A DNA stretch of 20,000 nt. It comes from an uncultured virus (IMG/VR IMGVR_UViG_3300034062_004781) (lineage: Duplodnaviria; Heunggongvirae; Uroviricota; Caudoviricetes). Location: the IMG/VR virus record IMGVR_UViG_3300034062_004781; one strand, 5' to 3'. Below, one piece after another: positions 1-14,080 of the stretch (position 1 is the stretch's first letter; each line of letters starts with the position of its first letter). The notes beneath the pieces were generated by a model, which saw only the letters and a list, made by a program, of their open reading frames with translations, was not told where the DNA came from and did not search any database. Made by a program: the position numbers and the translations under genes.

Positions 1-1326
1 GTTCTGCCTCGCACCTGTGTCCGCCATGAGGAAGCCGGGGAAGTTCGCATACATGCCGGCGTCCAGCATTTCGCGCCACGCGGCAGTAACCGCATTTGTG
101 GTATTACCCAGAATATGAAGTAGACCGATATCGTAAAAACCCATACCGGGAACAAACTGATATTTGACAAAATTGACGCGAGCCTCTGGCAGCTCGTCGC
201 CCTCTTCACCTGTGGGCTCATCGTAGTTCCTCACGATTGAGAGGATTTCCCTTGAGCTTTTGTCGATTGTTACACGATACGGGATCTCGAGCCCCGTTAT
301 CTTACCTTTGTATTTATGTTCGAAGCCGCGAATGTCTAACTCGCAATAAACCTCATAGATCTCGCGATCACGGTCATCAGGATTGCGCGCCTCGACAGCA
401 ATGCCTTGCTGATCTGCCTTCTCGCGCTTTACGGCGTCGGCTTCTTCGAAGCTCGGCGTTCCGAGATCAACGTCGCGATAAACGCCAAGGATCTGAAGTC
501 GCTTGACGGTAGATGGCTTGAGGCTGACGCGATGCGTAATGCGTTTAGCCGTGCTGAGATCGGTTGCCGCGTTATTGACGATGAGATCATCAGCGTCAAC
601 AGATTCGGAAACCGGGCGTCCTCTAAGCGGACAGAAATAGACTTTCTTGAAAGCCGTTCCGCCAAAGCCCAGCATGAGAAGCATTCGATCCGTGTCAGGG
701 TAATACTCCTTCGCGACAGCCGTCAGATAATGATTGAGATCTGACTCGAGCGCATTGGCGCGCTCGTCTTCTTCAATCGTCGTGCCATCAGCTTCGCTGC
801 GCACCTTCACAGGACCATCGGTCGGCAACAGCTCGCTGCGCGCATTAGCCTGAAAGCGCAACACCGCTTCAAGAAGAAGCGGATGACGCACCTTCGACAT
901 GCCTTCGACCGGAGCGCCATCAGACGCGCCCTGCAGGCCGGGGATCTCGATCTTCAAGCCAAGCAGCTTGATGCCCTGCGCACGATCCTCGATCCAATCC
1001 TGACGGCTTGTCAGATCGTCTTCGATGCCACGCAGCAAGTCATCGGCAATCATGCCAAGATCGCTGCCGTCGATGTCTTCGACAAGATTGTCGAACCAGC
1101 CCGGCGGGTTCTCGCCTTCGGCGCGCTCCACAGGGTTGCCGTCGAGCGAAACGCTCACCGAGCCATCATCGTGCTCGATGCGCAGAATATTGCCCTTGTC
1201 GTCGGTCTCTGGTTTGTCGTGACCTTGCTCGATCTCGACAAGGATGTCTTCAAGGCCGCCAAGGCCGCCGGTCGGCACCCCTTCTTGCTGGCGGAGTGAA
1301 GGTGTGAGCCCGGGCGTCAATGGCAT
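1..1326 (-). CDS. Phage portal protein, N-terminal part (runs off the window's left edge)
   Basis: Manual translation gives an open frame from ATG at 1326 to the edge: MPLTPGLTPSLRQQEG...DDLTSRQDWIEDRAQGIKLLGLK...HPLLLEAVLRFQANARSELLPTDGPVK...GTAFKKVYF...FVKYQFVPGMGFYDIGLLHILG. These motifs resemble podovirus-type portal proteins and the gene lies downstream of TerL. It is absent from the ORF track because there is no stop codon in the window. Confidence 0.85.
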   Translation of the reverse strand, partial: MPLTPGLTPSLRQQEGVPTGGLGGLEDILVEIEQGHDKPETDDKGNILRIEHDDGSVSVSLDGNPVERAEGENPPGWFDNLVEDIDGSDLGMIADDLLRGIEDDLTSRQDWIEDRAQGIKLLGLKIEIPGLQGASDGAPVEGMSKVRHPLLLEAVLRFQANARSELLPTDGPVKVRSEADGTTIEEDERANALESDLNHYLTAVAKEYYPDTDRMLLMLGFGGTAFKKVYFCPLRGRPVSESVDADDLIVNNAATDLSTAKRITHRVSLKPSTVKRLQILGVYRDVDLGTPSFEEADAVKREKADQQGIAVEARNPDDRDREIYEVYCELDIRGFEHKYKGKITGLEIPYRVTIDKSSREILSIVRNYDEPTGEEGDELPEARVNFVKYQFVPGMGFYDIGLLHILGNTTNAVTAAWREMLDAGMYANFPGFLMADTGARQN

Positions 1327-1328
1327 GA

Positions 1329-1547
1329 TCAGTCTTCCTTGTCCTCATCGATGAGGCGTGAAATTTCGTCGACGAAACGCTCGAGGCCTTCGCGCGCAGC
1401 CATATTATCATCTTTGGCTTGGATCTCATAGACGCGCACATAATCGTGGGGCTCCTTGCCCCAGACGGTGACGCTGAATTTTCCAAGGCCCTGACCGTGG
1501 GCCGGCGGCTCGTCGATCACGTCGACGACAGCATTTGCATAGATCAT
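1329..1547 (-). CDS. Hypothetical protein (72 aa) between TerL and portal
   Basis: Fills the gap between TerL and portal on the same strand with tight spacing. Confidence 0.75.
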   Translation of the reverse strand: MIYANAVVDVIDEPPAHGQGLGKFSVTVWGKEPHDYVRVYEIQAKDDNMAAREGLERFVDEISRLIDEDKED

Positions 1548-1558
1548 CTTGATTCCAA

Positions 1559-3190
1559 TTAAACGGGATAGAGCGGCTGCGGGCCAGCGCCTTCATGCAT
1601 TCTACTCTCGTCGAGACTGGACGTCCATTCTGCGCCGCGCACAAGGATGCCGATCTCGCGAAGATGCTTCAGCGCCATTGATGTCGTATCGACAAGGTCG
1701 TCATGCTTGCCGCGCGGGAACTGCGCCGCTTGGTTGATGACCATCTCGGCCCAAGGTCGATTGGCAGGCGCGTAGATCAGCCCCTCGGCGAATAGATGCT
1801 GGATCGAGTAGAGACGGGCAAGCTTGTCGAGCCCCTTCGGGTCAATCAGCTGGACGGCGAATTCATCGTATCCGTAGACGCGACGGATTTCCTGCGCCAC
1901 GCTGTAGCCGCTGGCTTTGTTCTCGATGAGCAATTTCTCGACGCCATAATTGTCCATCGTCTCCTGCACCTTATCGATCAGCTCGTGCAGCTCGAGGCGC
2001 TCAGCCCATGCATACATGAGCATGCAGCGCGGGTGTTCTTCCTTATATTGGCGATTGAGGATCGCCATCTGGCCGTCTTTGTCGAGCGCCCGGGTGACGA
2101 CGGCTGTCTGGTCGCCGCCCTTCCAGACGCCCCAGACGGTCATGGCGCTCGGATCGTTCTCGGCCTTGGTTGTATAGGCAGTGTCGATTGAGGCTATGAC
2201 GTAGTCAAAGGGCGGGTATGACGGCTGATCCCAGCGGATCCACCAGTCGCGCTTGATGACGCCGCCGCCGCGCGGCTCGGGGCTTTGCTGGAACTGCCCG
2301 GCTGTGGCGTAGGGGCCCAGAGAGTTTTCATCCCTATCGACCACAATCTCGGGAAAACGAGCCGGAAAAAGAAGCTGCCCCTCTTCGGTTCTGGGGTCTT
2401 CAGTTCCGAGCAATGTCTCATGTGCTCGCCCCGGGTCGTAGCGCATCGGAAGCATAATATGGTCATAACCGAGATCCTTGCTCAGGATGACGCCCGACAC
2501 GTCCTCTTCGTGCAGGCGCTGCATGATGACGATGATGGCTGATTCGAGCGGCTTGTTCAGACGGGTTGGGACGGCCTCGAGAAACCACTCGATGGTGCTC
2601 GCGCGCTGCTGATCAGAGTTCGCACCTTCAACGCTGTGCGGGTCGTCGATGATGACGCGGTCGCCGCGCGCGCCGGTAATGGAGCCGGCGGCCACAGCCT
2701 GCCGGAAGCCGGTCGAGGTCAGTTCGAACTTGGTTTTCTGATTTTGATCTTTGGTGATCTGGACGCGGTCGCCCCAGCGCTCCTGATACCATTCTGATTC
2801 GATCAGGCGTCGCATCTTGGTCGAATCACGGATGGCAAGATCCATCGAGTGTGACGCGCAGAGATAGCGCAGGTGCGGCATGTTCTTCGGCCCCCATTCC
2901 CATGAAGGCCAAAAGACGTTTGTGAGGAGCGACTTCATCATGCCCGGCGGCACGTTGATCAGCAGACGATTGTATTTCGTTCCGTCGTCGAACTCGACGC
3001 CATATGTGATGGCCTCGAGATGCTCGCAGATGATGTCAACGTGCCAATTGTGAATGTAGTCTGCACCGGGCTCGACGATGTGCCACGCCTGACGAATAAA
3101 CTCTGCAAGACTTTCTTCGCACTCGTCGCGGCTGATATCAATTAGCGTTTTACGAGCGTCGATCTTTTTGCCGAATAATTCGACGATCAA
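1559..3190 (-). CDS. terL: Terminase large subunit
   Basis: Walker A-like INVPPGMMKS, Walker B VIIDDP, coupling motif IMQRLHEED, RNase H-like nuclease motifs SIDTA and HDDLVD. The ORF track starts at 3211, but TTG at 3190 has an AAGGGA SD and overlaps the upstream stop (TTGA). Confidence 0.95.
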   Translation of the reverse strand: MIVELFGKKIDARKTLIDISRDECEESLAEFIRQAWHIVEPGADYIHNWHVDIICEHLEAITYGVEFDDGTKYNRLLINVPPGMMKSLLTNVFWPSWEWGPKNMPHLRYLCASHSMDLAIRDSTKMRRLIESEWYQERWGDRVQITKDQNQKTKFELTSTGFRQAVAAGSITGARGDRVIIDDPHSVEGANSDQQRASTIEWFLEAVPTRLNKPLESAIIVIMQRLHEEDVSGVILSKDLGYDHIMLPMRYDPGRAHETLLGTEDPRTEEGQLLFPARFPEIVVDRDENSLGPYATAGQFQQSPEPRGGGVIKRDWWIRWDQPSYPPFDYVIASIDTAYTTKAENDPSAMTVWGVWKGGDQTAVVTRALDKDGQMAILNRQYKEEHPRCMLMYAWAERLELHELIDKVQETMDNYGVEKLLIENKASGYSVAQEIRRVYGYDEFAVQLIDPKGLDKLARLYSIQHLFAEGLIYAPANRPWAEMVINQAAQFPRGKHDDLVDTTSMALKHLREIGILVRGAEWTSSLDESRMHEGAGPQPLYPV

Positions 3191-3456
3191 TGCGGCGTCC
3201 CTTCGATCCACGCAGTCATATTATTTTTCTTCGCGAGCATCACCGACCTATTTATCGCCTCGGTGAACATTTCAAATTCTTCTTTGACGTCTTTCTCTTG
3301 CGTAACCATCGAGCACAACATACACGAAGCGGCTGAGGCCAAGATCTGCAAAGCGAAGTGCGCGTCATCTTGCTTTTGCAAAACCGCCATCACATCCTTT
3401 ACGCCCTCAACCAGCTCCCGCAGCTCCTCACTGATCTCGCCTTCATTGTCGTTCAT
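3187..3456 (-). CDS. Hypothetical protein (89 aa) between TerS and TerL
   Basis: Overlaps both neighbours by 4 nt, suggesting translational coupling. Confidence 0.75.
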   Translation of the reverse strand: MNDNEGEISEELRELVEGVKDVMAVLQKQDDAHFALQILASAASCMLCSMVTQEKDVKEEFEMFTEAINRSVMLAKKNNMTAWIEGTPH

Positions 3457-3911
3457 TTATCGTCCGCCACAGCCATGAGCGCCGCTTTCAGCGCTTCACG
3501 CTGTTCTGCGTCGAGAGCCTTCGTATCAATCCGGGCGACGGTCTCGGTCTTGATCGCGCCACCGTCAGCGCCGGTGACTTCTGTCACCTTGCGCTCGGTG
3601 TAGTCTTCGCGGAATCGCGCCTGCATAGACGTGCGCCAGACGACCGCGTTGAACTTGTCCATGAACATGCCGCGACGCCCTGCGTTCTCCCACCACTGCT
3701 GCTCGAGCATCTTCGCGCGCGTAAGGGCTGTCGAAAATTCTTCATGAGAGGCGGCCCAATCATAGAGCGTCGGCCTATCCACATCGCATGCGAGCGCCCA
3801 ATCGACCGGCCCAGCGCCTTCTACAGCCAGCTCGACGATCTTCTCGCAGAACTCCGGCTTATACTTGCTCGGGCGGCCCACAGGGCGCTTTTTGGGGGCT
3901 TCTTCGGCCAT
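3453..3911 (-). CDS. terS: Terminase small subunit
   Basis: GRPSKYKPEFCEKI...CDVDRPTLYDWAASHEEFSTALTRAK HTH N-terminus and EVTGADGGAI C-terminal motif, typical of Sf6/P22-like TerS. Located upstream of TerL. Confidence 0.85.
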   Translation of the reverse strand: MAEEAPKKRPVGRPSKYKPEFCEKIVELAVEGAGPVDWALACDVDRPTLYDWAASHEEFSTALTRAKMLEQQWWENAGRRGMFMDKFNAVVWRTSMQARFREDYTERKVTEVTGADGGAIKTETVARIDTKALDAEQREALKAALMAVADDK

Positions 3912-4353: not shown

Positions 4354-4662
4354 TTATTCAAAATCGCTGTCGTCATCTTCGTCGACAGAAGACGCTGCTC
4401 GATCCATCGCTGCTTTTCCCAAGGGGGTGTCTGCCAGCATCCCCAGAGCATCCATGTAAACTGAAAGTAGAGCCTGCTCCTCTGCTCTCTTTGAAGCATC
4501 CTTCTTGCGAAGAGCCAGAACCTTTTTAATGATTTTAGGATCGAAGCCATTGGCCTTCGCCTCGGAGAATACGGACTTAACGTCATCGGCGAGCGCCGTG
4601 CGTTCCTCTTCTAACTTTTCGATTCGCTCAACAAGAGCCTTGAGCTGGTTGTTTGACGACAT
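4354..4662 (-). CDS. gapR: GapR/DUF2312-family nucleoid-associated protein
   Basis: QLKALVERIEKLEEERTALADDVKSVFSEAKANGFDPKIIKKVLALRKKD...EEQALLSVYMDALGM matches the DUF2312 (UPF0335) consensus. Confidence 0.92.
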   Translation of the reverse strand: MSSNNQLKALVERIEKLEEERTALADDVKSVFSEAKANGFDPKIIKKVLALRKKDASKRAEEQALLSVYMDALGMLADTPLGKAAMDRAASSVDEDDDSDFE

Positions 4663-4850: not shown

Positions 4851-4879
4851 TTGTAGAGTGAAGAAACTTCATATATGGT
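4851..4879 (+). promoter_or_regulatory. Sigma70-like promoter P1 with a palindromic operator in its spacer
   Basis: TTGTAG-N17-TATGGT. The spacer contains TGAAG-AAA-CTTCA (4859-4871). It lies directly upstream of the early operon. Confidence 0.65.
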
Positions 4880-4914: not shown

Positions 4915-5217
4915 ATGAACAACACCGCTGCTCTCGCCGACGCCTACGCCGCTCTCAAGCACGAGGAAGCCTCCATAAAGGCTCGCCTCGAAACGCTCAA
5001 GGGCGAAATCGTCTCCTACGGCGAGAAGGAGCTGGTCGGCGACACCTGCATCGTGGCGCTGGTCGAGAAGAAGGGCGCTTCGACGCTCGACAAGGATGCC
5101 GCGCTGAATCTGCTGCGTTCGCTCGGTGCCTCTGACGAGCAGATCGCCAGCCTGACGAAGATCGGCAAGCCGTCGACGTCACTGCTGATCAAGCCGAAGC
5201 TGTCGCTGGCTATATAA
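4915..5217 (+). CDS. Hypothetical early protein (100 aa), coiled-coil N-terminus
   Basis: SD GGAGA with ATG at 4915 (MNNTAALADAYAALKHEE...). The TAA stop abuts hammerhead 1. Confidence 0.85.
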   Translation: MNNTAALADAYAALKHEEASIKARLETLKGEIVSYGEKELVGDTCIVALVEKKGASTLDKDAALNLLRSLGASDEQIASLTKIGKPSTSLLIKPKLSLAI

Positions 5218-5271
5218 GGTCGAAACGGGGCTCCGGCCCCGTCTGTCCGTCAAGCGGGCACTGATGAGACC
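5218..5271 (+). ncRNA. Hammerhead ribozyme, type II (copy 1); predicted cleavage after C5243
   Basis: GGUC-GAA-[ACGGGGC UCCG GCCCCGU]-C-[UGUCCG UCAAG CGGGCA]-CUGAUGA-GACC. Complete CUGAUGA and GAAA core, GUC cleavage triplet, three stems with stem II open. Confidence 0.95.
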
Positions 5272-5284
5272 GATGGAGATTGAT

Positions 5285-5437
5285 ATGATCAAGGTGCGCA
5301 AAAACTCGAAGATCAAAGTGTGGAACATCTATGCGTTCGATGGCGAGAACCTCGGCACCTATTCGTTCCATACGCAGGAGGTGAAAGCTTATTTTCCCGG
5401 CTGCACGATCAAGGGCAACAACGTCTACCTTTTGTAA
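5285..5437 (+). CDS. Small hypothetical protein (50 aa) bracketed by two hammerheads, not in the ORF track
   Basis: ATGGAGATTGATATG start motif, then MIKVRKNSKIKVWNIYAFDGENLGTYSFHTQEVKAYFPGCTIKGNNVYLL*. The TAA stop abuts hammerhead 2. Confidence 0.85.
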   Translation: MIKVRKNSKIKVWNIYAFDGENLGTYSFHTQEVKAYFPGCTIKGNNVYLL

Positions 5438-5489
5438 GGTCGAAACGCTCTTCGGAGCGTCTGACGGTCAGGCCGTCACTGATGAGACC
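5438..5489 (+). ncRNA. Hammerhead ribozyme, type II (copy 2); predicted cleavage after C5461
   Basis: GGUC-GAA-[ACGCUC UUCG GAGCGU]-C-[UGACGG UCAGG CCGUCA]-CUGAUGA-GACC. Core identical to copy 1 with compensatory changes in stems I and III. Confidence 0.95.
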
Positions 5490-5502
5490 AAGGAGAATTG
5501 AC

Positions 5503-5733
5503 ATGCGTTCTATTGCTGTTATCGCTCGCGAGATCCGCGCTGATTGGAAGAAGCCTTACTTTGGCGCTGTGCCGTATCTCGATGCAATGTGCGAGCTTAA
5601 TTCAATCAACGACAACTATTACTATGATAGCGGCGAATCAGTCGTTCGTTATTTTCTTGCCAACGCCAATACATGGCGCGGCGAGAAGGCTCGCGCTGTT
5701 AAAGCTGAACTCAAAAAGATTTTGGGAGAGTGA
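5503..5733 (+). CDS. Conserved-looking phage hypothetical protein (76 aa)
   Basis: SD AAGGAG with ATG at 5503: MRSIAVIAREIRADWKKPYFGAVPYLDAM...FLANANTWRGEKARAVKAELKKIL. It resembles a phage family of unknown function (recalled, not searched). Confidence 0.85.
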   Translation: MRSIAVIAREIRADWKKPYFGAVPYLDAMCELNSINDNYYYDSGESVVRYFLANANTWRGEKARAVKAELKKILGE

Positions 5734-5734
5734 T

Positions 5735-6022
5735 ATGAGCGAAGATAAAAAATATACAGCATTCGTTCGCGCAGGCGGAACTTGCTCTTGGTATTGTGCC
5801 GAAGGAAAAACAGAGGCAGCGACGAAAGCCGTTCAACAATACAAGCGCGACTTTAAACACGTCTTCAAGATCAAGAAAGGCGTCGAATACAAGGTCGTCG
5901 TGTTTGACACGACAGGCATTGAAGAATGGGTCACAGATGACGATGGCTTTCTTCATCCATTTTACAATGGCGTCGCAAGCGATCCGATCAAAGATTATGA
6001 GATTGTAAAAGTATATGCTTAA
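5735..6022 (+). CDS. Hypothetical early protein (95 aa)
   Basis: GGGAGAG-TGA-T-ATG coupling to the previous gene; starts MSEDKKYTAF. Confidence 0.8.
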   Translation: MSEDKKYTAFVRAGGTCSWYCAEGKTEAATKAVQQYKRDFKHVFKIKKGVEYKVVVFDTTGIEEWVTDDDGFLHPFYNGVASDPIKDYEIVKVYA

Positions 6023-6024
6023 AC

Positions 6025-6044
6025 GATGGGGCTACGGCCCCATC
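6025..6044 (+). repeat. Intergenic UNCG hairpin GATGGGGC-TACG-GCCCCATC
   Basis: Perfect 8-bp stem just after a stop codon, with no U-tract. Same core as 7147-7164 and as stem III of hammerhead 1. Confidence 0.7.
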
Positions 6045-6061
6045 TAACACCGGAGATTGAT

Positions 6062-6271
6062 ATGCTCGAGATCATCAAGCCAATACCTGATAGCCCTCTG
6101 CATAATGAGAGCGATGCGTCTCTAAAAACGCTGATCAATTATTTTAGAGACGACATGCAGATCAGGCCGAACGCTGTCATCATCGAGCATCATGCAAACA
6201 AGATCGATGAAATATACAAAGTGCTCGGATATCGCTGCGCACTTGAATACATCAAACAGTATGGAGATTGA
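6062..6271 (+). CDS. Hypothetical early protein (69 aa)
   Basis: GGAGATTGATATG start motif; starts MLEIIKPIPD. Confidence 0.8.
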   Translation: MLEIIKPIPDSPLHNESDASLKTLINYFRDDMQIRPNAVIIEHHANKIDEIYKVLGYRCALEYIKQYGD

Positions 6272-6272
6272 T

Positions 6273-6716
6273 ATGGGAACGCGCGCTGTTTACACCTTCA
6301 ACGACGGTGATGATCGCTTTCACGTTTACAAGCACTGGGACGGCTACCCGTTAGGCGCTGCGCTCTTCTTCATGAAGGCCATCCCCTATGCATGGGGCGG
6401 TAAACGCTTTGAAGCTGGCGATTTTGCCGCAGCCTTCATATCTGGCAACAAGCCCGAAGGCGGTGGCGACGTCTACCTTACAAAAGGCCCCAATGCCCAT
6501 TGCGACCTCGAGTATGTGTATGAGCTCTACCAGAACAAGCTGGGTGGCCTGATGATCAAGGCCTACCATATGGACTGGGATGGCGAGACAGACAAGACCA
6601 GCAAGAAGCGGTTCTTCAATGGGTCACTGGTCAGCTTTGTCATGGAGCATGGCGACGACGAAGCCAAGCAAAAGGCCGATGAGCACTGGAATCTGAGCCC
6701 AAAAGCAGCCGCATAA
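6273..6716 (+). CDS. Conserved phage hypothetical protein (147 aa) with M-x-T-R...Y-x-H-W-D-G-Y-P motif
   Basis: Start motif present; MGTRAVYTF...HVYKHWDGYP resembles a widespread phage family of unknown function (recalled, not searched). Confidence 0.85.
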   Translation: MGTRAVYTFNDGDDRFHVYKHWDGYPLGAALFFMKAIPYAWGGKRFEAGDFAAAFISGNKPEGGGDVYLTKGPNAHCDLEYVYELYQNKLGGLMIKAYHMDWDGETDKTSKKRFFNGSLVSFVMEHGDDEAKQKADEHWNLSPKAAA

Positions 6717-6745
6717 AAAAGAGGGCCTTCGGGCCCTTTTTCTTT
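6715..6745 (+). terminator. Rho-independent terminator, possibly bidirectional
   Basis: AAAAAAGAGGGCC-TTCG-GGCCCTTTTTCTTT immediately after a stop codon. Confidence 0.85.
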
Positions 6746-6755
6746 GTCAGGTGAA

Positions 6756-6784
6756 TTGACATAGTGAAGTTTCTTCACTATCCT
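6756..6784 (+). promoter_or_regulatory. Sigma70-like promoter P2 with a perfect palindromic operator
   Basis: TTGACA-N17-TATCCT. ATAGTGAAG-TTT-CTTCACTAT (6761-6781) spans the spacer. Confidence 0.8.
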
Positions 6785-6811
6785 ACGAATCATCAACTGA
6801 TGGAGATTGAT

Positions 6812-7144
6812 ATGTGCAACGTCAAAAATGCTCCCGAAGGCCGCTACTTCGTCGAATCCGGCTGGTCTGACCGCACCCCTTGGGTCGTCGTCAAAGAGAG
6901 CCCCTCGGGCATGACCCTGACCCTTGTGCCGGTCGAGGTCGAAAAGGATCCCGAGTTTAAGCCTGACTTCAGCGTCGGCGGCTTCTCGGCCCACTGCAAC
7001 AATAACCATGAGCAGACGTGGCTGTATGCCGGCACCTGCCCCATGCGCAAGAAGACGATCCGCCTTGGCAAAAAAGGCTGGGCCAGCGGCACGTTCCGCG
7101 AGACGCACAAAGGTCCGGTGCGCTTCTACGATTATAACTTCTAG
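6812..7144 (+). CDS. Hypothetical early protein (110 aa)
   Basis: Start motif at 6800-6814; MCNVKNAPEGRYFVESGWSD...RFYDYNF. Confidence 0.85.
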   Translation: MCNVKNAPEGRYFVESGWSDRTPWVVVKESPSGMTLTLVPVEVEKDPEFKPDFSVGGFSAHCNNNHEQTWLYAGTCPMRKKTIRLGKKGWASGTFRETHKGPVRFYDYNF

Positions 7145-7146
7145 TC

Positions 7147-7164
7147 GAGGGGCTACGGCCCCTC
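7147..7164 (+). repeat. Intergenic UNCG hairpin GAGGGGC-TACG-GCCCCTC
   Basis: Perfect 7-bp stem just after a stop codon. Shares GGGGCTACGGCCCC with 6028-6041. Confidence 0.7.
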
Positions 7165-7193
7165 ACCTTCCTCTCAATTTTATGGAGATTGAT

Positions 7194-7487
7194 ATGCAGG
7201 ACAACGCCAACACCATCAAGGTTTCTTACCCGGAAGCTTTCATCACGGTGAAAGAAGACAAGCGCCGTGACTGGTCGGAAATCGCCGTCTATGTCGATCC
7301 CGTTCTGCCGGGTGCGGGCAAGATCTGCGCTTCAATCATCACGCATCCCTGCAAGGGCGCAAAATGGTTCGTGCATGACCGTGACACGGGATGCCGTGGA
7401 GTTCCCTTCAAAACCAAAAAGCTTGCTCTGTGGGCTGCTATTGAAGCAGCCAAAGACATCGAAGCTTACAAGCATCACGCAAAGTAA
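7194..7487 (+). CDS. Hypothetical early protein (97 aa)
   Basis: Start motif at 7182-7196; starts MQDNANTIKV. Confidence 0.8.
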   Translation: MQDNANTIKVSYPEAFITVKEDKRRDWSEIAVYVDPVLPGAGKICASIITHPCKGAKWFVHDRDTGCRGVPFKTKKLALWAAIEAAKDIEAYKHHAK

Positions 7488-7498
7488 TGGAGATTGAT

Positions 7499-7735
7499 AT
7501 GACCAACCCTAACCCCGACTTCATCGTTCACGCTGGCGAGTGTGCCACTGTGTGGGGCTTTGAGCCTCAGAACGAAGTGGCTTTAGACTTTATTCAGGAA
7601 CTTGGTGGAGAAGATTGGCAGTGGAACGGCAAGATCTTCTACACCGACCATCGTCCTGCGCGTGATCTTGCGCGTTACATGGTTGGCGAAGGCTTTGTCG
7701 TTATGCATCCTCAATACGGTTACTTTGGAGGTTGA
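7499..7735 (+). CDS. Hypothetical early protein (78 aa)
   Basis: Start motif at 7487-7501; starts MTNPNPDFIV. Confidence 0.8.
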   Translation: MTNPNPDFIVHAGECATVWGFEPQNEVALDFIQELGGEDWQWNGKIFYTDHRPARDLARYMVGEGFVVMHPQYGYFGG

Positions 7736-7736
7736 T

Positions 7737-8066
7737 ATGGATCAGTCGCGTCCCTTTATTCTCGCGTCTACCGAGCTTTGCTATGAGGCTAATCCGACGC
7801 TGTGGCATCTATACTGCGCATTGACTAATCGAATCATCGGACAGCCTAGCGCACTATGGACTGAGCAAGACGTTGTCATCGCAATACTAGCAAGAGGACT
7901 AAACCCAAATGACGCCAGAAAAAATGATTCAGATAATGAACAATCAAGGTCTGTCAAATCAGGATATCGCTTCGATATCCGGCGTGACATATCGACAGGT
8001 AATGTCATGGCGGTCAGGGAAGCATCCAGTTCCAATGATGCTGTCGTTTTTGTTGTCGGCGCTTGA
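7737..8066 (+). CDS. Hypothetical protein whose 3' half overlaps the downstream HTH gene
   Basis: GGAGGT-TGA-T-ATG start; begins MDQSRPFILA. Overlaps 7909-8133 by 158 nt. Confidence 0.6.
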   Translation: MDQSRPFILASTELCYEANPTLWHLYCALTNRIIGQPSALWTEQDVVIAILARGLNPNDARKNDSDNEQSRSVKSGYRFDIRRDISTGNVMAVREASSSNDAVVFVVGA

Positions 8067-10671: not shown

Positions 10672-12873
10672 TCACAGTCCCTTCCCGATGCGGAGGCCCT
10701 TTTTGTTTGACTTATCGCCCCACAAATCGGTGACGATGACGTCCGAGCGGTGCCACATGTTGACATACTTCTCGCACACATTGACTGACAGATTGAACAT
10801 GTCGCTGAGTCGATCCGGCGCATATCGATCCGTGTCACGGCTCTTCTTGTCACGGCTCCACGGATATCCGCCGCGCCATGCCGCGTCGATTGCTGAGACC
10901 ATTTTCCTACATGTCTCCATGTCGGGCTCGTTTCCTGTCTCCTGCACGCCCCCAAAATCGCCCGCTGATGCGTCTTCTGGCTTCTGGGGTGTCACCGTAG
11001 CAGGATCTACCGGAAGGGCCACCAGCGAGCTTCTGCCGAAGCCCAGATCGATGTCCCTGAGCTCGAATGGCAGATCCCACCCGTCCCGGGCTTCCTTGAT
11101 CTTCATCATGGTCATTGTGCCGAACATGCCGGGCTTTTCTCGTTCGACGAAGATCGCGCAGTTGGCCGCGCCCTCGAGGACATTTGACCCGCGCAGGGCC
11201 TTCCCGTTGCCTTTGGAGACGTGATGCGCGCCTGTGGCCGAACAATCGAAAGCAAGGCGCATGGCGTCATTGGCTTGAATGTAGAGCGTCATGTCCTTCT
11301 GCAGGTTTTCGTCCGCGCCCGGCAAGACGCGCGAGACCGTGTCGATGATGATCATGACAGGCTTCTCGCCGCACTTGTTTTCGACCTCGATTTTGATTGT
11401 CTGAATTAACTTCACAATATGCGCAGGGTCCATAAAGTTCACGGGTTGCCTGATAAAGTGAAATCTCTTCCTGTTAATCTGAACTTTCTTCGCCTTTTCC
11501 CATGCCATCATGCGGAACTTCATATCCGTCGTGCCTTCCGACGAGATATACACGATGGGGCCATGCCGATTGATCTTCTTCCCAAACCAATGCGTGATCT
11601 CATCGACACCCAACGAGAAGGCCATGTCCATCGCGATGAACGTCTTGCCGCAGCCGGGAGCGCCATAGATAAATGCTGTCGCGCCTTCGATGATCAGATC
11701 TTGGATCAGAAACACCGGATCCGGCAGATTGAATATGTCGTCTACACTGAGAACCTCGAATAAATTTGAGGAGGTTTTTGGATCGGCAACCGAGAACTTA
11801 TGCGCAGGCGCATCCCAGTCCTCTGATTCTTCGGGTTGCGTTTTATTATCCGTATTTTCCGCAACTCCTTCCGATATCTGATCGGCGAAGGATTTTGTCG
11901 GCTTCTGATTCGGCTTTGGCTCCTTAGCCGCTTCGATGATCTTGTCCCAGTCTTTTATTGACGCGCGCCATTTGGCCTTGAACTCTGTGATGCCACGGCC
12001 TTCTTTTTCGAGCGCCGCTTCCTTGCTTTCAGATAGGCCCGGTAGCCGGCTTTCAACTTTACCGAGATAGATCGAGAATAGATCATCGCGCTGCTTGATT
12101 AATTCTTCGTCGCTTGGCTTGATCGGGCAGTCGCGCGCGATGTCGACCAACCGCGCCCAGATCATGCGGAACATGTAATCTTCGCGACCATCCTTCAGCG
12201 CGCCCCATGCATCATGCAGATGATCAGGCGTTGCTGTCTTGACGTGCGGGCCTGCATGCGTCGATCCGCCATGCTGCTCGGCGAGAAGATCGATCTGCTC
12301 GCACAGCCAGCGCGGCGCTTCAGCGATCTCAAGATTCCACGGCTCTTTGTCTTCGATCCACTGATAGCGCGTTCCGCTTTCGTGCATTGACGGCGCAGCA
12401 ACAATGAAGCCGCCAACGCCACGGATATCGACGCCAATAGACGTCTTGATCGTCGGAGAAGTCCAGCCTTCCGGCGCACGGAAAAGGATCTGCAGGCCAC
12501 CACCGCCAGTGCGCTGGGTCGGCGATTCAAGCTCGTCGGCTTTCTCCTGCATATCCATGCAGCAAGACCACCACAGCGCGGCCTCTGGCTTTGAATGCGT
12601 GTCGAGATCGACGACAAAGACGCGACCGCTGCAGTTGCCAGTGAGAATGCCGATATTGTTTTTTGTGTCGCTGATGCCGTCGAACCACTTATGGAACGTC
12701 ACATCGTCGACCAGTTCGTTTTGATAATCACGCCATCCATCAAGCGCGGGGCGCTTCCAGTTATGGACATGGCGCGTCGGATAGTGTGACGGCACAGCCT
12801 GCAGCCCAAGCTCGCGATACATGCGCGCGTAATCTGCAAGACTTGCGAAGTCTTCGTTGAAATCTGTAAGCAT
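10672..12873 (-). CDS. Bifunctional primase-polymerase (Prim-Pol) fused to an AAA_25/RepA-type helicase
   Basis: Prim-Pol motifs NIGILTG, VVDLD, TGGGG, GVDIRGVGGFIVAAPSMHESG. Helicase motifs YGAPGCGKTF (Walker A), IIIDT (Walker B), AHHVSK and LRGS. Confidence 0.93.
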   Translation of the reverse strand: MLTDFNEDFASLADYARMYRELGLQAVPSHYPTRHVHNWKRPALDGWRDYQNELVDDVTFHKWFDGISDTKNNIGILTGNCSGRVFVVDLDTHSKPEAALWWSCCMDMQEKADELESPTQRTGGGGLQILFRAPEGWTSPTIKTSIGVDIRGVGGFIVAAPSMHESGTRYQWIEDKEPWNLEIAEAPRWLCEQIDLLAEQHGGSTHAGPHVKTATPDHLHDAWGALKDGREDYMFRMIWARLVDIARDCPIKPSDEELIKQRDDLFSIYLGKVESRLPGLSESKEAALEKEGRGITEFKAKWRASIKDWDKIIEAAKEPKPNQKPTKSFADQISEGVAENTDNKTQPEESEDWDAPAHKFSVADPKTSSNLFEVLSVDDIFNLPDPVFLIQDLIIEGATAFIYGAPGCGKTFIAMDMAFSLGVDEITHWFGKKINRHGPIVYISSEGTTDMKFRMMAWEKAKKVQINRKRFHFIRQPVNFMDPAHIVKLIQTIKIEVENKCGEKPVMIIIDTVSRVLPGADENLQKDMTLYIQANDAMRLAFDCSATGAHHVSKGNGKALRGSNVLEGAANCAIFVEREKPGMFGTMTMMKIKEARDGWDLPFELRDIDLGFGRSSLVALPVDPATVTPQKPEDASAGDFGGVQETGNEPDMETCRKMVSAIDAAWRGGYPWSRDKKSRDTDRYAPDRLSDMFNLSVNVCEKYVNMWHRSDVIVTDLWGDKSNKKGLRIGKGL

Positions 12874-12979
12874 TTTGAGGGGCCTTCTATATCGATTGAT
12901 TTACGTCATGATTTATGAGATATTCGCATTGTTACCTTGGCTCTCTGTCATTGTGACGTTTTCCTCCCTTGAATGACTG

Positions 12980-13006
12980 GAGCGGCGAAGGGGCCGCTCT
13001 TTTTTT
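12980..13006 (+). terminator. Hairpin with a T-run, oriented against the leftward genes
   Basis: GAGCGGC-GAAGGG-GCCGCTC-TTTTTTT. Confidence 0.55.
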
Positions 13007-13394
13007 ATAGCTCAACAATTATATGACCATATGAATCGATCTCAAGTTTAGGATCTGGTCGAGGCAAAACTACAAAAGTTTTCCCCTTGCTGCTTTGCTT
13101 CCACATAAATCCATATTCGCAATCTATTGTATGTATAACCGGAACCACTACAGGGCCTTGAATAATATCACCCTCCCAACCGATCTTTCTTGCAGCTTGA
13201 AGAGATGCATTAAATTTCCCTATAAAATCATTTATGTCAGAATAATCGAGTGAGTAAACTTTTAGCCTCTTCAAAGAGTTATCTGTTCTTTCTTTGATTG
13301 TATCACAGTGTTGAAATATCATGTCTTTTACAGGAACAAAAAAATTCCAACCGAAATCAACCGGACTTATTGCGTATGCGTAAAGATAATCCAT
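13005..13394 (-). CDS. AT-rich hypothetical protein (129 aa)
   Basis: SD AGGAG; YAYAISPVDFGW...ARKIGWEGDI...FMWKQSSKGKTFVV. Compositionally distinct insert. Confidence 0.8.
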   Translation of the reverse strand: MDYLYAYAISPVDFGWNFFVPVKDMIFQHCDTIKERTDNSLKRLKVYSLDYSDINDFIGKFNASLQAARKIGWEGDIIQGPVVVPVIHTIDCEYGFMWKQSSKGKTFVVLPRPDPKLEIDSYGHIIVEL

Positions 13395-13865: not shown

Positions 13866-13988
13866 TTACCAACCTCTCTTGTAAATATCGTATATCATGC
13901 GAACCATATTAAACACGAAGAACGCGCAAAGCGTCCATGCGACGATGACGATGGGGCCAATCAATAAAAAGTCCATGATGTGATTCAT
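13866..13988 (-). CDS. Small membrane protein (40 aa), not in the ORF track
   Basis: Exact ATGGAGATTGATATG start motif, then MNHIMDFLLIGPIVIVAWTLCAFFVFNMVRMIYDIYKRGW*. Confidence 0.7.
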   Translation of the reverse strand: MNHIMDFLLIGPIVIVAWTLCAFFVFNMVRMIYDIYKRGW

Positions 13989-14080
13989 ATCAATCTCCAT
14001 ACATTAAAGTCTCAGCCGGCCCGGTTGCGTATTGAAGTAGCCATCGACACGCGGGTGAGTTGGGCCGGCTGAGGCGCAAA

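Follow-up and report, generated by a model that had tools for sequence, protein, structure and literature searches.

Clustered hammerhead ribozymes have been described in prophages of Clostridium scindens, Azorhizobium caulinodans and Agrobacterium tumefaciens, where they flank single genes or short gene blocks (PMC3088659). According to the available portion of that report, self-cleavage of three prophage clusters was shown in vitro and, for one cluster, in E. coli as well, and it was proposed that long phage transcripts are converted into gene-length messenger RNAs (mRNAs) of different stability (Perreault et al. 2011, PMC3088659). The processing idea returns in reviews (PMC6155905, PMC6765202), of which the one from 2019, in its available text, presents different stabilities or translation efficiencies as a proposal and calls for more work (PMC6765202). 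For three type II hammerheads of Desulfovibrio vulgaris, cyPhyRNA-seq recorded cleavage in vivo, with 5'-OH and 2',3'-cyclic phosphate ends (PMC8782182), and for the RiboJ element the available text gives an increase of 2- to 10-fold in downstream protein and of about 2-fold in transcript (PMC6206723). Here we analyze two type II hammerheads, HH1 and HH2, in a stretch of 20,000 nucleotides (nt) from an uncultured virus (IMG/VR record IMGVR_UViG_3300034062_004781; the whole stretch is called the window). Both lie on the + strand, in a block of small phage genes, and they bracket a single gene, g50, which is preceded by g100 and followed by g76 (Table 1).

The locus resembles the 2011 prophage clusters, as far as the available text describes these, in that several hammerheads, type II among them, flank genes of unknown function in phage-derived DNA. 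It differs from them in its subtype, which has a fixed helix II of 4 base pairs (bp; GGUC/GACC), a stem I of 7 bp in which a U.G pair leads into the triloop, and A's conserved on its flanks. A pseudoknot of at least 4 bp between loop I and the 3' tail, reported in the available text of PMC3088659 for the majority of the type II examples, as a common and not a defining feature, left no signal in the subtype of the window. Dataset S1 of PMC3088659 may already list this subtype. The Rfam model for type II hammerheads (RF02276, Hammerhead_II) expects a shorter helix II than is found here, and a conserved 3' tail. The D. vulgaris hammerheads are, like those of the window, of type II and located near hypothetical and phage-like genes, as the available text has it (PMC8782182). 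They occupy three separate genomic sites, whereas HH1 and HH2 bracket one gene. RiboJ, which was derived from a type III satellite-RNA hammerhead by the addition of a hairpin, is engineered and used at promoter-gene junctions, unlike the window elements, which lie between natural genes. What it shares with HH1 and HH2 is a position just upstream of a ribosome binding site (RBS), where the hammerhead removes upstream RNA and leaves a constant leader (PMC6206723, in its available text).

Two complete type II hammerheads between stop codon and Shine-Dalgarno sequence

Both elements show the type II topology, with the 5' strand of helix II, GAAA, the helix III hairpin, GUC, the helix I hairpin, CUGAUGA and the 3' strand of helix II in this order, helices I and III being capped and helix II being open and carrying both ends. 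The core strand C3-U4-G5-A6-N7-G8-A9 is present in both as CUGAUGA (5261-5267 and 5479-5485), G12-A13-A14 together with the A15.1:U16.1 pair as GAA-A (5222-5225 and 5442-5445, with the pairs A5225:U5242 and A5445:U5460), the N-U-H cleavage triplet (H not G) as GUC at the junction of helices III and I (5241-5243 and 5459-5461), and the first helix II pair, G10.1:C11.1, as C5221:G5268 and C5441:G5486. Helix II is GGUC/GACC in both (4 bp). Stem I consists of 6 bp plus the U.G pair, with a CAA triloop in HH1 and a CAG triloop in HH2; it differs between the copies at two pairs, and the pairing is kept in both (U.G to A:U and C:G to G:C). Stem III opens in both with an A:U and then a C:G pair, is followed by a single unpaired C, and differs between the copies in sequence and length. 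When folded in isolation, each element has the exact hammerhead secondary structure as its minimum free energy (MFE) fold (z-scores -2.75 and -2.12).

An earlier note on this DNA, which was made from the sequence, had claimed two complete type II hammerheads, and the sequence agrees with its description base for base; the cuts that it predicted (Table 1) and the positions that it gave for G5 (5263 and 5481) are correct by sequence as well. It had each ribozyme begin at the base after a TAA stop (5215-5217 and 5435-5437). This is true of GGUC but not of the ribozyme: an A precedes GGUC in 139 of 140 family members and is not demanded by the search pattern, and HH1 and HH2 therefore start at the last base of the stop codon (5217 and 5437). 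The GGAG of the Shine-Dalgarno (SD) sequence (5275-5278 and 5492-5495) follows 3 and 2 nt after HH1 and HH2, a spacing that the note had described properly, and the downstream start codons are at 5285 and 5503, respectively.

A half-pattern of the motif, GGTCGAAAC..GTCTG, occurs twice in the window against 0.01 occurrences expected, and none of 200 shuffles reached two. A search with RF02276, the check that had been called for, aligned model positions 1-66, and thus the full length, to both elements with every core position matched, the E-values being 1.1e-5 (HH1) and 3.9e-4 (HH2) in a scan of 411 nt and 5.2e-4 and 0.019 over the whole window. A model of our own (R1) was made from a gap-free alignment of 42 sequences of equal length, composed of HH2 plus 41 relatives from viruses. 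HH1, absent from the seed, scored 63.0 bits with R1 (E 3e-17), and the seed member HH2 73.4 bits. No further ribozymes were found in the 20-kb window: with the filters of R1 switched off the next best match had 10.2 bits, 53 bits below HH1, and none of the CUGANGA sites in the window other than those of HH1 and HH2 has a GAAA partner. We regard it as almost certain that HH1 and HH2 are genuine hammerheads. From the chemistry of the hammerhead family, Mg2+-dependent self-cleavage to a 2',3'-cyclic phosphate and a 5'-OH would be expected, and by analogy it is likely that they cleave in vivo.

Covariation and conserved bases in the family

The search pattern with which the family was collected left 11 pairs free; what it fixed was the core, all of helix II and the two opening pairs of helix III. 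Within the 42 gap-free sequences 99.0% of the 714 helix cells are paired, and double changes occur in 10 of the 11 free pairs. The covariation score is 0.672 against 0.119 for shuffled alignments (0 out of 500 as high), and with slid partners it is at most 0.108. The helix covariation that the earlier note had seen is thereby borne out, between the two copies as well as in the alignment. Helix II shows double changes in three of its four pairs (GC to AU, UA to AU or CG) among 117 distinct model-aligned sequences, an alignment that was fitted to the model, so that pairing is favoured in it; the first helix II pair is CG in all 117, being fixed by the search pattern for most of them. As to single bases, stem I has a U as its first one on the loop side in 42/42 sequences, and GACC is directly followed by A in 112 of 138. 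Together with the A at -1, these are what the subtype keeps instead of the pseudoknot.

The unit of ribozyme, g50 and ribozyme is kept in four related viral contigs. One of these (L138, contig G001) is near-identical to the window and has the same two ribozymes. In L134 (G002) a terminator, a promoter and an extra gene for 56 amino acids (aa), g56, lie between g100 and the first ribozyme. The second ribozyme of L135 (G003) has AGCC/GGCU as helix II and UGUGGG/CCCAUA as stem I, and is followed by a homolog of the window gene 7737-8066, and the first ribozyme of L136 (G005), a complete phage of 58.6 kb, has AGUC/GACU as helix II. Helix II thus varies among the orthologs by compensatory change, and none of the 8 orthologous copies is altered at any core position. 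Taken together, the intact core, the compensatory changes in helix II and the kept A at -1 form the signature of selection on the whole ribozyme. The rearrangement junction between L135 and the window falls outside the ribozyme, on a shared 17-nt translation-initiation sequence, ATGGAGATTGATATGGA; this start-region sequence may therefore, judging from its position at the junction, serve as a recombination linker for gene shuffling.

Placement and abundance

The subtype pattern matches at least 128 viral stretches and 119 stretches in prokaryote assemblies from many phyla. We scanned 80 viral loci with R1 and merged those on the same contig by hand, which left 73 contigs. At least two ribozymes within about 3 kb were found in 28 of these and at least three in 14, with a maximum of nine; the figures are those of the R1 table, which we prefer to a pattern-based array count that sees a ribozyme in only 60 of the 73. 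On single contigs, nine type II hammerheads lie within about 3 kb (L015, 1-3064, IMG/VR) and within about 6 kb (L074-L076). These nine-copy arrays are far denser than the pair of the window or the triple clusters of the 2011 paper.

The position between two genes is general in the family. In 120 of 140 members the distance from the end of an upstream open reading frame (ORF) to the ribozyme is -1 to 15 nt, compared with 18% at random positions, and in 102 of those 120 it is -1 to 3 nt. A start codon preceded by an SD sequence follows within 40 nt downstream in 103/140 members (control 14%), and the median distance from the ribozyme to the first start codon is 20 nt for the 140 members.

Hammerhead, hairpin or terminator after g100

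Viral contigs were searched with an alignment of g100 proteins alone, and 17 of the 18 loci that came up could be used (one of them being L138, the near-identical contig). Directly after the g100 stop, five of the 17 have a hammerhead, ten a GC-rich tetraloop hairpin only and two something else. The stem GGGGC-N4-GCCCC is present in 7 of the 10 hairpins and in stem III of all five hammerheads, as it is in that of HH1, and the 14-mers GGGGCUCCGGCCCC and GGGGCUACGGCCCC were found in both classes. In one of the hairpin loci (L139) the hairpin is flanked by A and U tracts, with a promoter behind it. The terminator hairpin of L139/L134 (2326-2350; GGGGCUACGGCCCC plus A/U tracts) agrees in every letter with stem III of the hammerhead that L141/L135 has at the same place (2325-2345). 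Such identity suggests that terminator and ribozyme were converted one into the other, or that the hairpin was a site of recombination. L144 and L150 (1200-1270) have neither a hammerhead nor a simple GC hairpin; after the stop they share a different, conserved 70-nt sequence that includes an GGCGGGCACG..CGUGCCUGC hairpin.

Only one of the 11 inner branches of the g100 tree is well supported. Hammerhead and hairpin states occur in each half of the tree, and both are found within one pair of 97% identity. The states of the junction among the relatives thus indicate that hammerhead, bare hairpin and terminator replace one another after g100; common to all three is a stable hairpin that directly follows the stop codon.

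Proposed role in mRNA processing

The reading that we favor, with a probability of roughly 0.6, is that HH1 and HH2 are functional and cut one polycistronic + strand phage mRNA, which makes the neighboring genes independent of one another in stability and translation. For the uncoupling role taken by itself, which is argued by analogy, we put the chances at even or slightly better. Protein-free processing of a polycistronic phage mRNA restates the hypothesis of Perreault et al. 2011. The earlier note had read the locus in the same way, as processing of an early phage mRNA, and the type II fold, the covarying helices, the phage origin and the place on the coding strand between stop codon and SD sequence agree with it; the word 'early' is unsupported.

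In this scheme a single mRNA would probably begin at the putative promoter P1 (near 4851-4879) and end with the terminator-like hairpin at 6722-6745. Each ribozyme would fold after its 3' strand GACC has been made and would then cut after C5243 or C5461, upon which the 4-bp helix II would melt and three separate RNAs would be released. The first, the g100 message with its stop codon kept, would end in a 2',3'-cyclic phosphate one unpaired base (C17) past the GC-rich tetraloop hairpin of stem III. The second would be a g50 message of 218 nt (5244-5461) with a hairpin at both ends, and the third, the g76-to-g147 message, would carry a 5'-OH on the first base of the stem I hairpin and have 11 nt of single strand before the SD region. 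No topology other than type II would place a closed hairpin directly at each of the two new ends. Both 3' exonucleases and poly(A) polymerase depend on a 3'-OH end in single-stranded form, and a 5'-monophosphate on a single-stranded end stimulates RNase E. The downstream gene would gain a fixed leader regardless of the upstream sequence, and the ribozyme would yield a 3' end of the terminator kind while RNA polymerase runs on; it would be the natural analog of the RiboJ insulator. HH1 is like stabilizing hairpins and terminators in that the upstream mRNA would end in a hairpin. A terminator halts transcription, whereas the ribozyme lets the polymerase continue and cuts afterwards, and the 3' end would be a cyclic phosphate instead of the 3'-OH left by a terminator. 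The puf operon is the classic example of segmental mRNA stability. Both the hairpin and terminator substitutions in the relatives and the behavior of RiboJ fit an uncoupling role.

Several observations weigh against this reading. The RF02276 scores of HH1 and HH2 are 35.6 and 29.6 bits and thus under the gathering score of 37, which is an annotation threshold and not a property of the RNA; a default Rfam scan of the window reports no match because both scores are below that value. The same holds for the relatives, as only 1 of 11 Hammerhead_II matches passed the cut-off among 20 related loci and 1 of 14 among five related records. When 12-19 nt of flank are added, the MFE fold is no longer the hammerhead, and the SD region of HH2 pairs into stem III. 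The pseudoknot between loop I and tail left no signal in a comparison of loop I with the 15-nt tail in 138 sequences, the longest Watson-Crick match having a mean of 2.47 against 2.43 +/- 0.06 with tails permuted among them, so that fast cleavage at cellular Mg2+ would need a different tertiary contact. Matches of 4-5 bp that can be found by eye between loop I and the UUGA of the window start region were treated as chance, since the family is without pseudoknot signal. A ribozyme is present at only 2 of about 10 gene junctions of the block, and no RNA run was among those that contain the window. Finally, the available text of the 2019 review still regards the biological role as unknown (PMC6765202), the roles of hammerheads were still called elusive in November 2026 (PMC13725137), and our literature search found no paper that settles the function of genomic hammerheads.

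Alternative explanations

The ribozymes could instead be part of a mobile or mosaic cassette (ribozyme, RBS, small gene, ribozyme) and persist by insulating the expression of the cassette wherever it lands or by just travelling along with it, and not out of a need of this phage to have its mRNA cut. The unit around g50 is indeed constant while its neighbors change, g100 or g56 (L134) lying upstream and g76, a gene for 132 aa or the homolog of the window gene 7737-8066 downstream. The spread of the subtype over so many viral contigs and prokaryote assemblies agrees with this, as does the fact that unrelated contigs of the same metagenomes match the window in the ribozyme parts only. The sole junction that was mapped, that between L135 and the window, lies on ATGGAGATTGATATGGA and not inside a ribozyme, however, and the protein scans of the window gave no transposase, integrase or repeat beside the unit. 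We consider the cassette unlikely as a separate explanation; insulation is the mRNA-processing function itself, and the two accounts hence overlap.

The stop codon overlaps or abuts the ribozyme in 50/140 members (distance -1 or 0), and in the window the SD sequence begins 2-3 nt after helix II. This would suit a conditional switch, in which a terminating ribosome, or a 30S subunit on the SD sequence, competes with folding and cleavage reports the translation of the neighbor, and the alternative fold that pairs the SD sequence of HH2 with stem III points the same way. The family gave no sign of a conserved alternative structure, its distances from ribozyme to start codon range from 0 to 42 nt, and economy of intergenic space also explains the tight placement; we hold such a switch to be quite unlikely.

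It might also be that only the hairpins matter, as 3' stabilizers or leaky terminators and as 5' stabilizers, and that the core is a decaying or neutral leftover with negligible cleavage in vivo. Such an explanation would account for the 10 of 17 relatives in which a plain hairpin follows g100, for the missing pseudoknot signal and for the alternative folds in longer context. It does not account for a core that is intact in all 8 orthologous copies, for a helix II that is useless to a plain hairpin and changes by compensatory pairs only, or for the unpaired A at -1 that is kept in 139/140, and we judge it improbable.

A more particular possibility is that the excised g50 RNA is ligated by the reverse reaction into a small circular, exonuclease-proof phage mRNA for the 50-aa protein. 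As HH1 and HH2 have an identical helix II, the ends of the 218-nt RNA hold the halves of a hybrid hammerhead: the 5' half of HH2 at the 3' end and the 3' half of HH1 at the 5' end would fold together, so that the 5'-OH and the cyclic phosphate would meet in the active site. Halves that fit each other are found in the window, in L134 and, with one G.U pair, in L136, but those of L135 form only 2 of 4 pairs, and GGUC/GACC is the default helix II of the subtype anyway, which weakens the idea. It is weakened further by the 2011 clusters, for which the available text states that circular or spliced products were sought and none found (PMC3088659), and we hold a circular g50 mRNA to be very improbable. 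Chance resemblance or a non-functional motif, for which only the two scores under the Rfam gathering score speak, is effectively refuted by the covariation, considering an expected count of 0.01, 99% pairing with compensatory changes and the 53-bit gap.

Genomic context

The window belongs to a tailed phage, with the portal and the large and small terminase genes on the - strand at 1-3911 and genes for an HNH endonuclease, a primase-helicase and a RuvC-like resolvase further along. By its terminase, the nearest GenBank phage is MW202675.1, from an uncultured spring-water phage, with 62% identity; the terminase of a Paracoccus phage shows 42%. An R1 search of MW202675.1 gave no match, an empty answer that carries no weight. 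The DNA runs that contain the window are freshwater and lake metagenomes.

Table 1. Positions in the window of the two ribozymes, their parts and the neighboring features.
Feature	Position	Strand	Remarks
GapR-like gene	4354-4662		
Promoter P1, putative	4851-4879	+	sigma-70-like; TTGTAG, 17 nt spacer, TATGGT
Block of ten small genes without known function	4915-8066	+	only PHROGs of unknown function match
g100	4915-5217	+	100 aa; from SD-plus-ATG motif scan; TAA abuts HH1
HH1, including A at -1	5217-5271	+	type II, 55 nt; RF02276 35.6 bits, R1 63.0 bits
HH1 5' strand	5218-5221; 5222-5224	+	GGUC; GAA
HH1 stem III	5225-5242	+	A5225-U5242, 7 bp; loop UCCG 5232-5235
HH1 C17	5243	+	
HH1 cut, predicted	5243/5244	+	after C17 of the GUC triplet; counted in the sequence
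HH1 stem I	5244-5260	+	UGUCCG / CGGGCA
HH1 3' strand	5261-5267; 5268-5271	+	CUGAUGA; GACC
g50	5285-5437	+	50 aa; bracketed by HH1 and HH2
HH2, including A at -1	5437-5489	+	type II, 53 nt; RF02276 29.6 bits, R1 73.4 bits
HH2 5' strand	5438-5441	+	GGUC
HH2 stem III	5445-5460	+	6 bp; loop UUCG 5451-5454
HH2 C17	5461	+	
HH2 cut, predicted	5461/5462	+	after C17; counted in the sequence
HH2 stem I	5462-5478	+	UGACGG / CCGUCA
HH2 3' strand	5479-5485; 5486-5489	+	CUGAUGA; GACC
g76	5503-5733	+	AAGGAG 5490-5495, ATG 5503; phrog_13953, E 2.4e-31
g95	5735-6022	+	followed by g69 and g147
Intrinsic-terminator-like hairpin	6722-6745	+	AGGGCC UUCG GGCCCU, then UUUUCUUU
Promoter P2	6756-6784	+	TTGACA 6756 ... 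TATCCT 6784; four more genes follow
GGAGATTGATATG-type start regions	5273-5287, 6050-6064, 6261-6275, 6798-6814, 7182-7196, 7487-7501, 7725-7739		
GGAGATTGATATG-type start region	13988-14000	-	

The g100 protein has 64 homologous clusters, all unnamed or hypothetical, and g50 has six, none with a function; neither protein has a family match in Pfam or PHROG. Mechanical ORF calls enter the ribozymes, as the in-frame AUG in CUGAUGA turns g50 into 57 codons (5264-5437), and database versions of g50 are 55-67 aa long. The frame of g76 is fixed by its PHROG match, and a longer ORF (5498-6022) was rejected as a mis-framed fusion of an out-of-frame stretch over g76 with g95. In a blastn search against cultured phages the only match was one of 171 nt within g76 (5545-5715), where a hypothetical gene of actinobacterial phages (of Gordonia) is about 70% identical at the DNA level. 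The likeness is unexpected, as other genes of the window look proteobacterial.

P1 is likely to be the start of the transcript that carries both ribozymes, although it failed a consensus promoter scan, and the hairpin at 6722-6745 is likely to be the 3' limit of that transcript. A terminator followed by a promoter is the other type of gene boundary used in the block, and P2 and the promoter of L134 share the architecture of P1. The spacer of P1 contains the palindrome GTGAAGAAACTTCAT (4858-4872). A 15-nt palindrome of this kind, GTGAAG-N3-CTTCA, lies between -35 and -10 in P1, in P2 (6764-6778) and, as a third case, in L134 (2360-2374). The window has two full sites and a weaker one (11401-11415) against 0.36 expected by chance, and from its sequence and position the palindrome looks like an operator for a phage regulator. 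Near-identical start regions (GGAGATTGATATG) precede most of the small genes of the block. Elsewhere in the window, a weak Rfam match to the suhB/mmgR small RNA (12940-13014, + strand; 27.6 bits against a cut-off of 41, E 0.042) sits between the primase-helicase gene and a small gene on the - strand and is probably due to chance.

Implications

Clusters of phage hammerheads were already known, and what the present locus adds to them is modest: the rule of placement from stop codon to SD sequence, the inclusion of the stop-codon A in the ribozyme, the missing pseudoknot signal, the systematic under-detection by Rfam and a natural series of hammerhead, hairpin and terminator at one junction. As an abundant subtype that falls mostly under the Rfam cut-off, these ribozymes are missed in the routine annotation of phage genomes, and gene callers stretch the downstream ORF into the ribozyme via the AUG inside CUGAUGA. 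The function of bacterial and phage hammerheads has been an open question since 2011, which HH1 and HH2 do not answer. They do come with an unusually clean natural comparison, in which the same gene is followed in closely related phages by a hammerhead, by the hairpin alone with an identical stem, or by a full terminator and a promoter, and it is this comparison that turns the gain of a ribozyme over a hairpin into a question of a direct swap.

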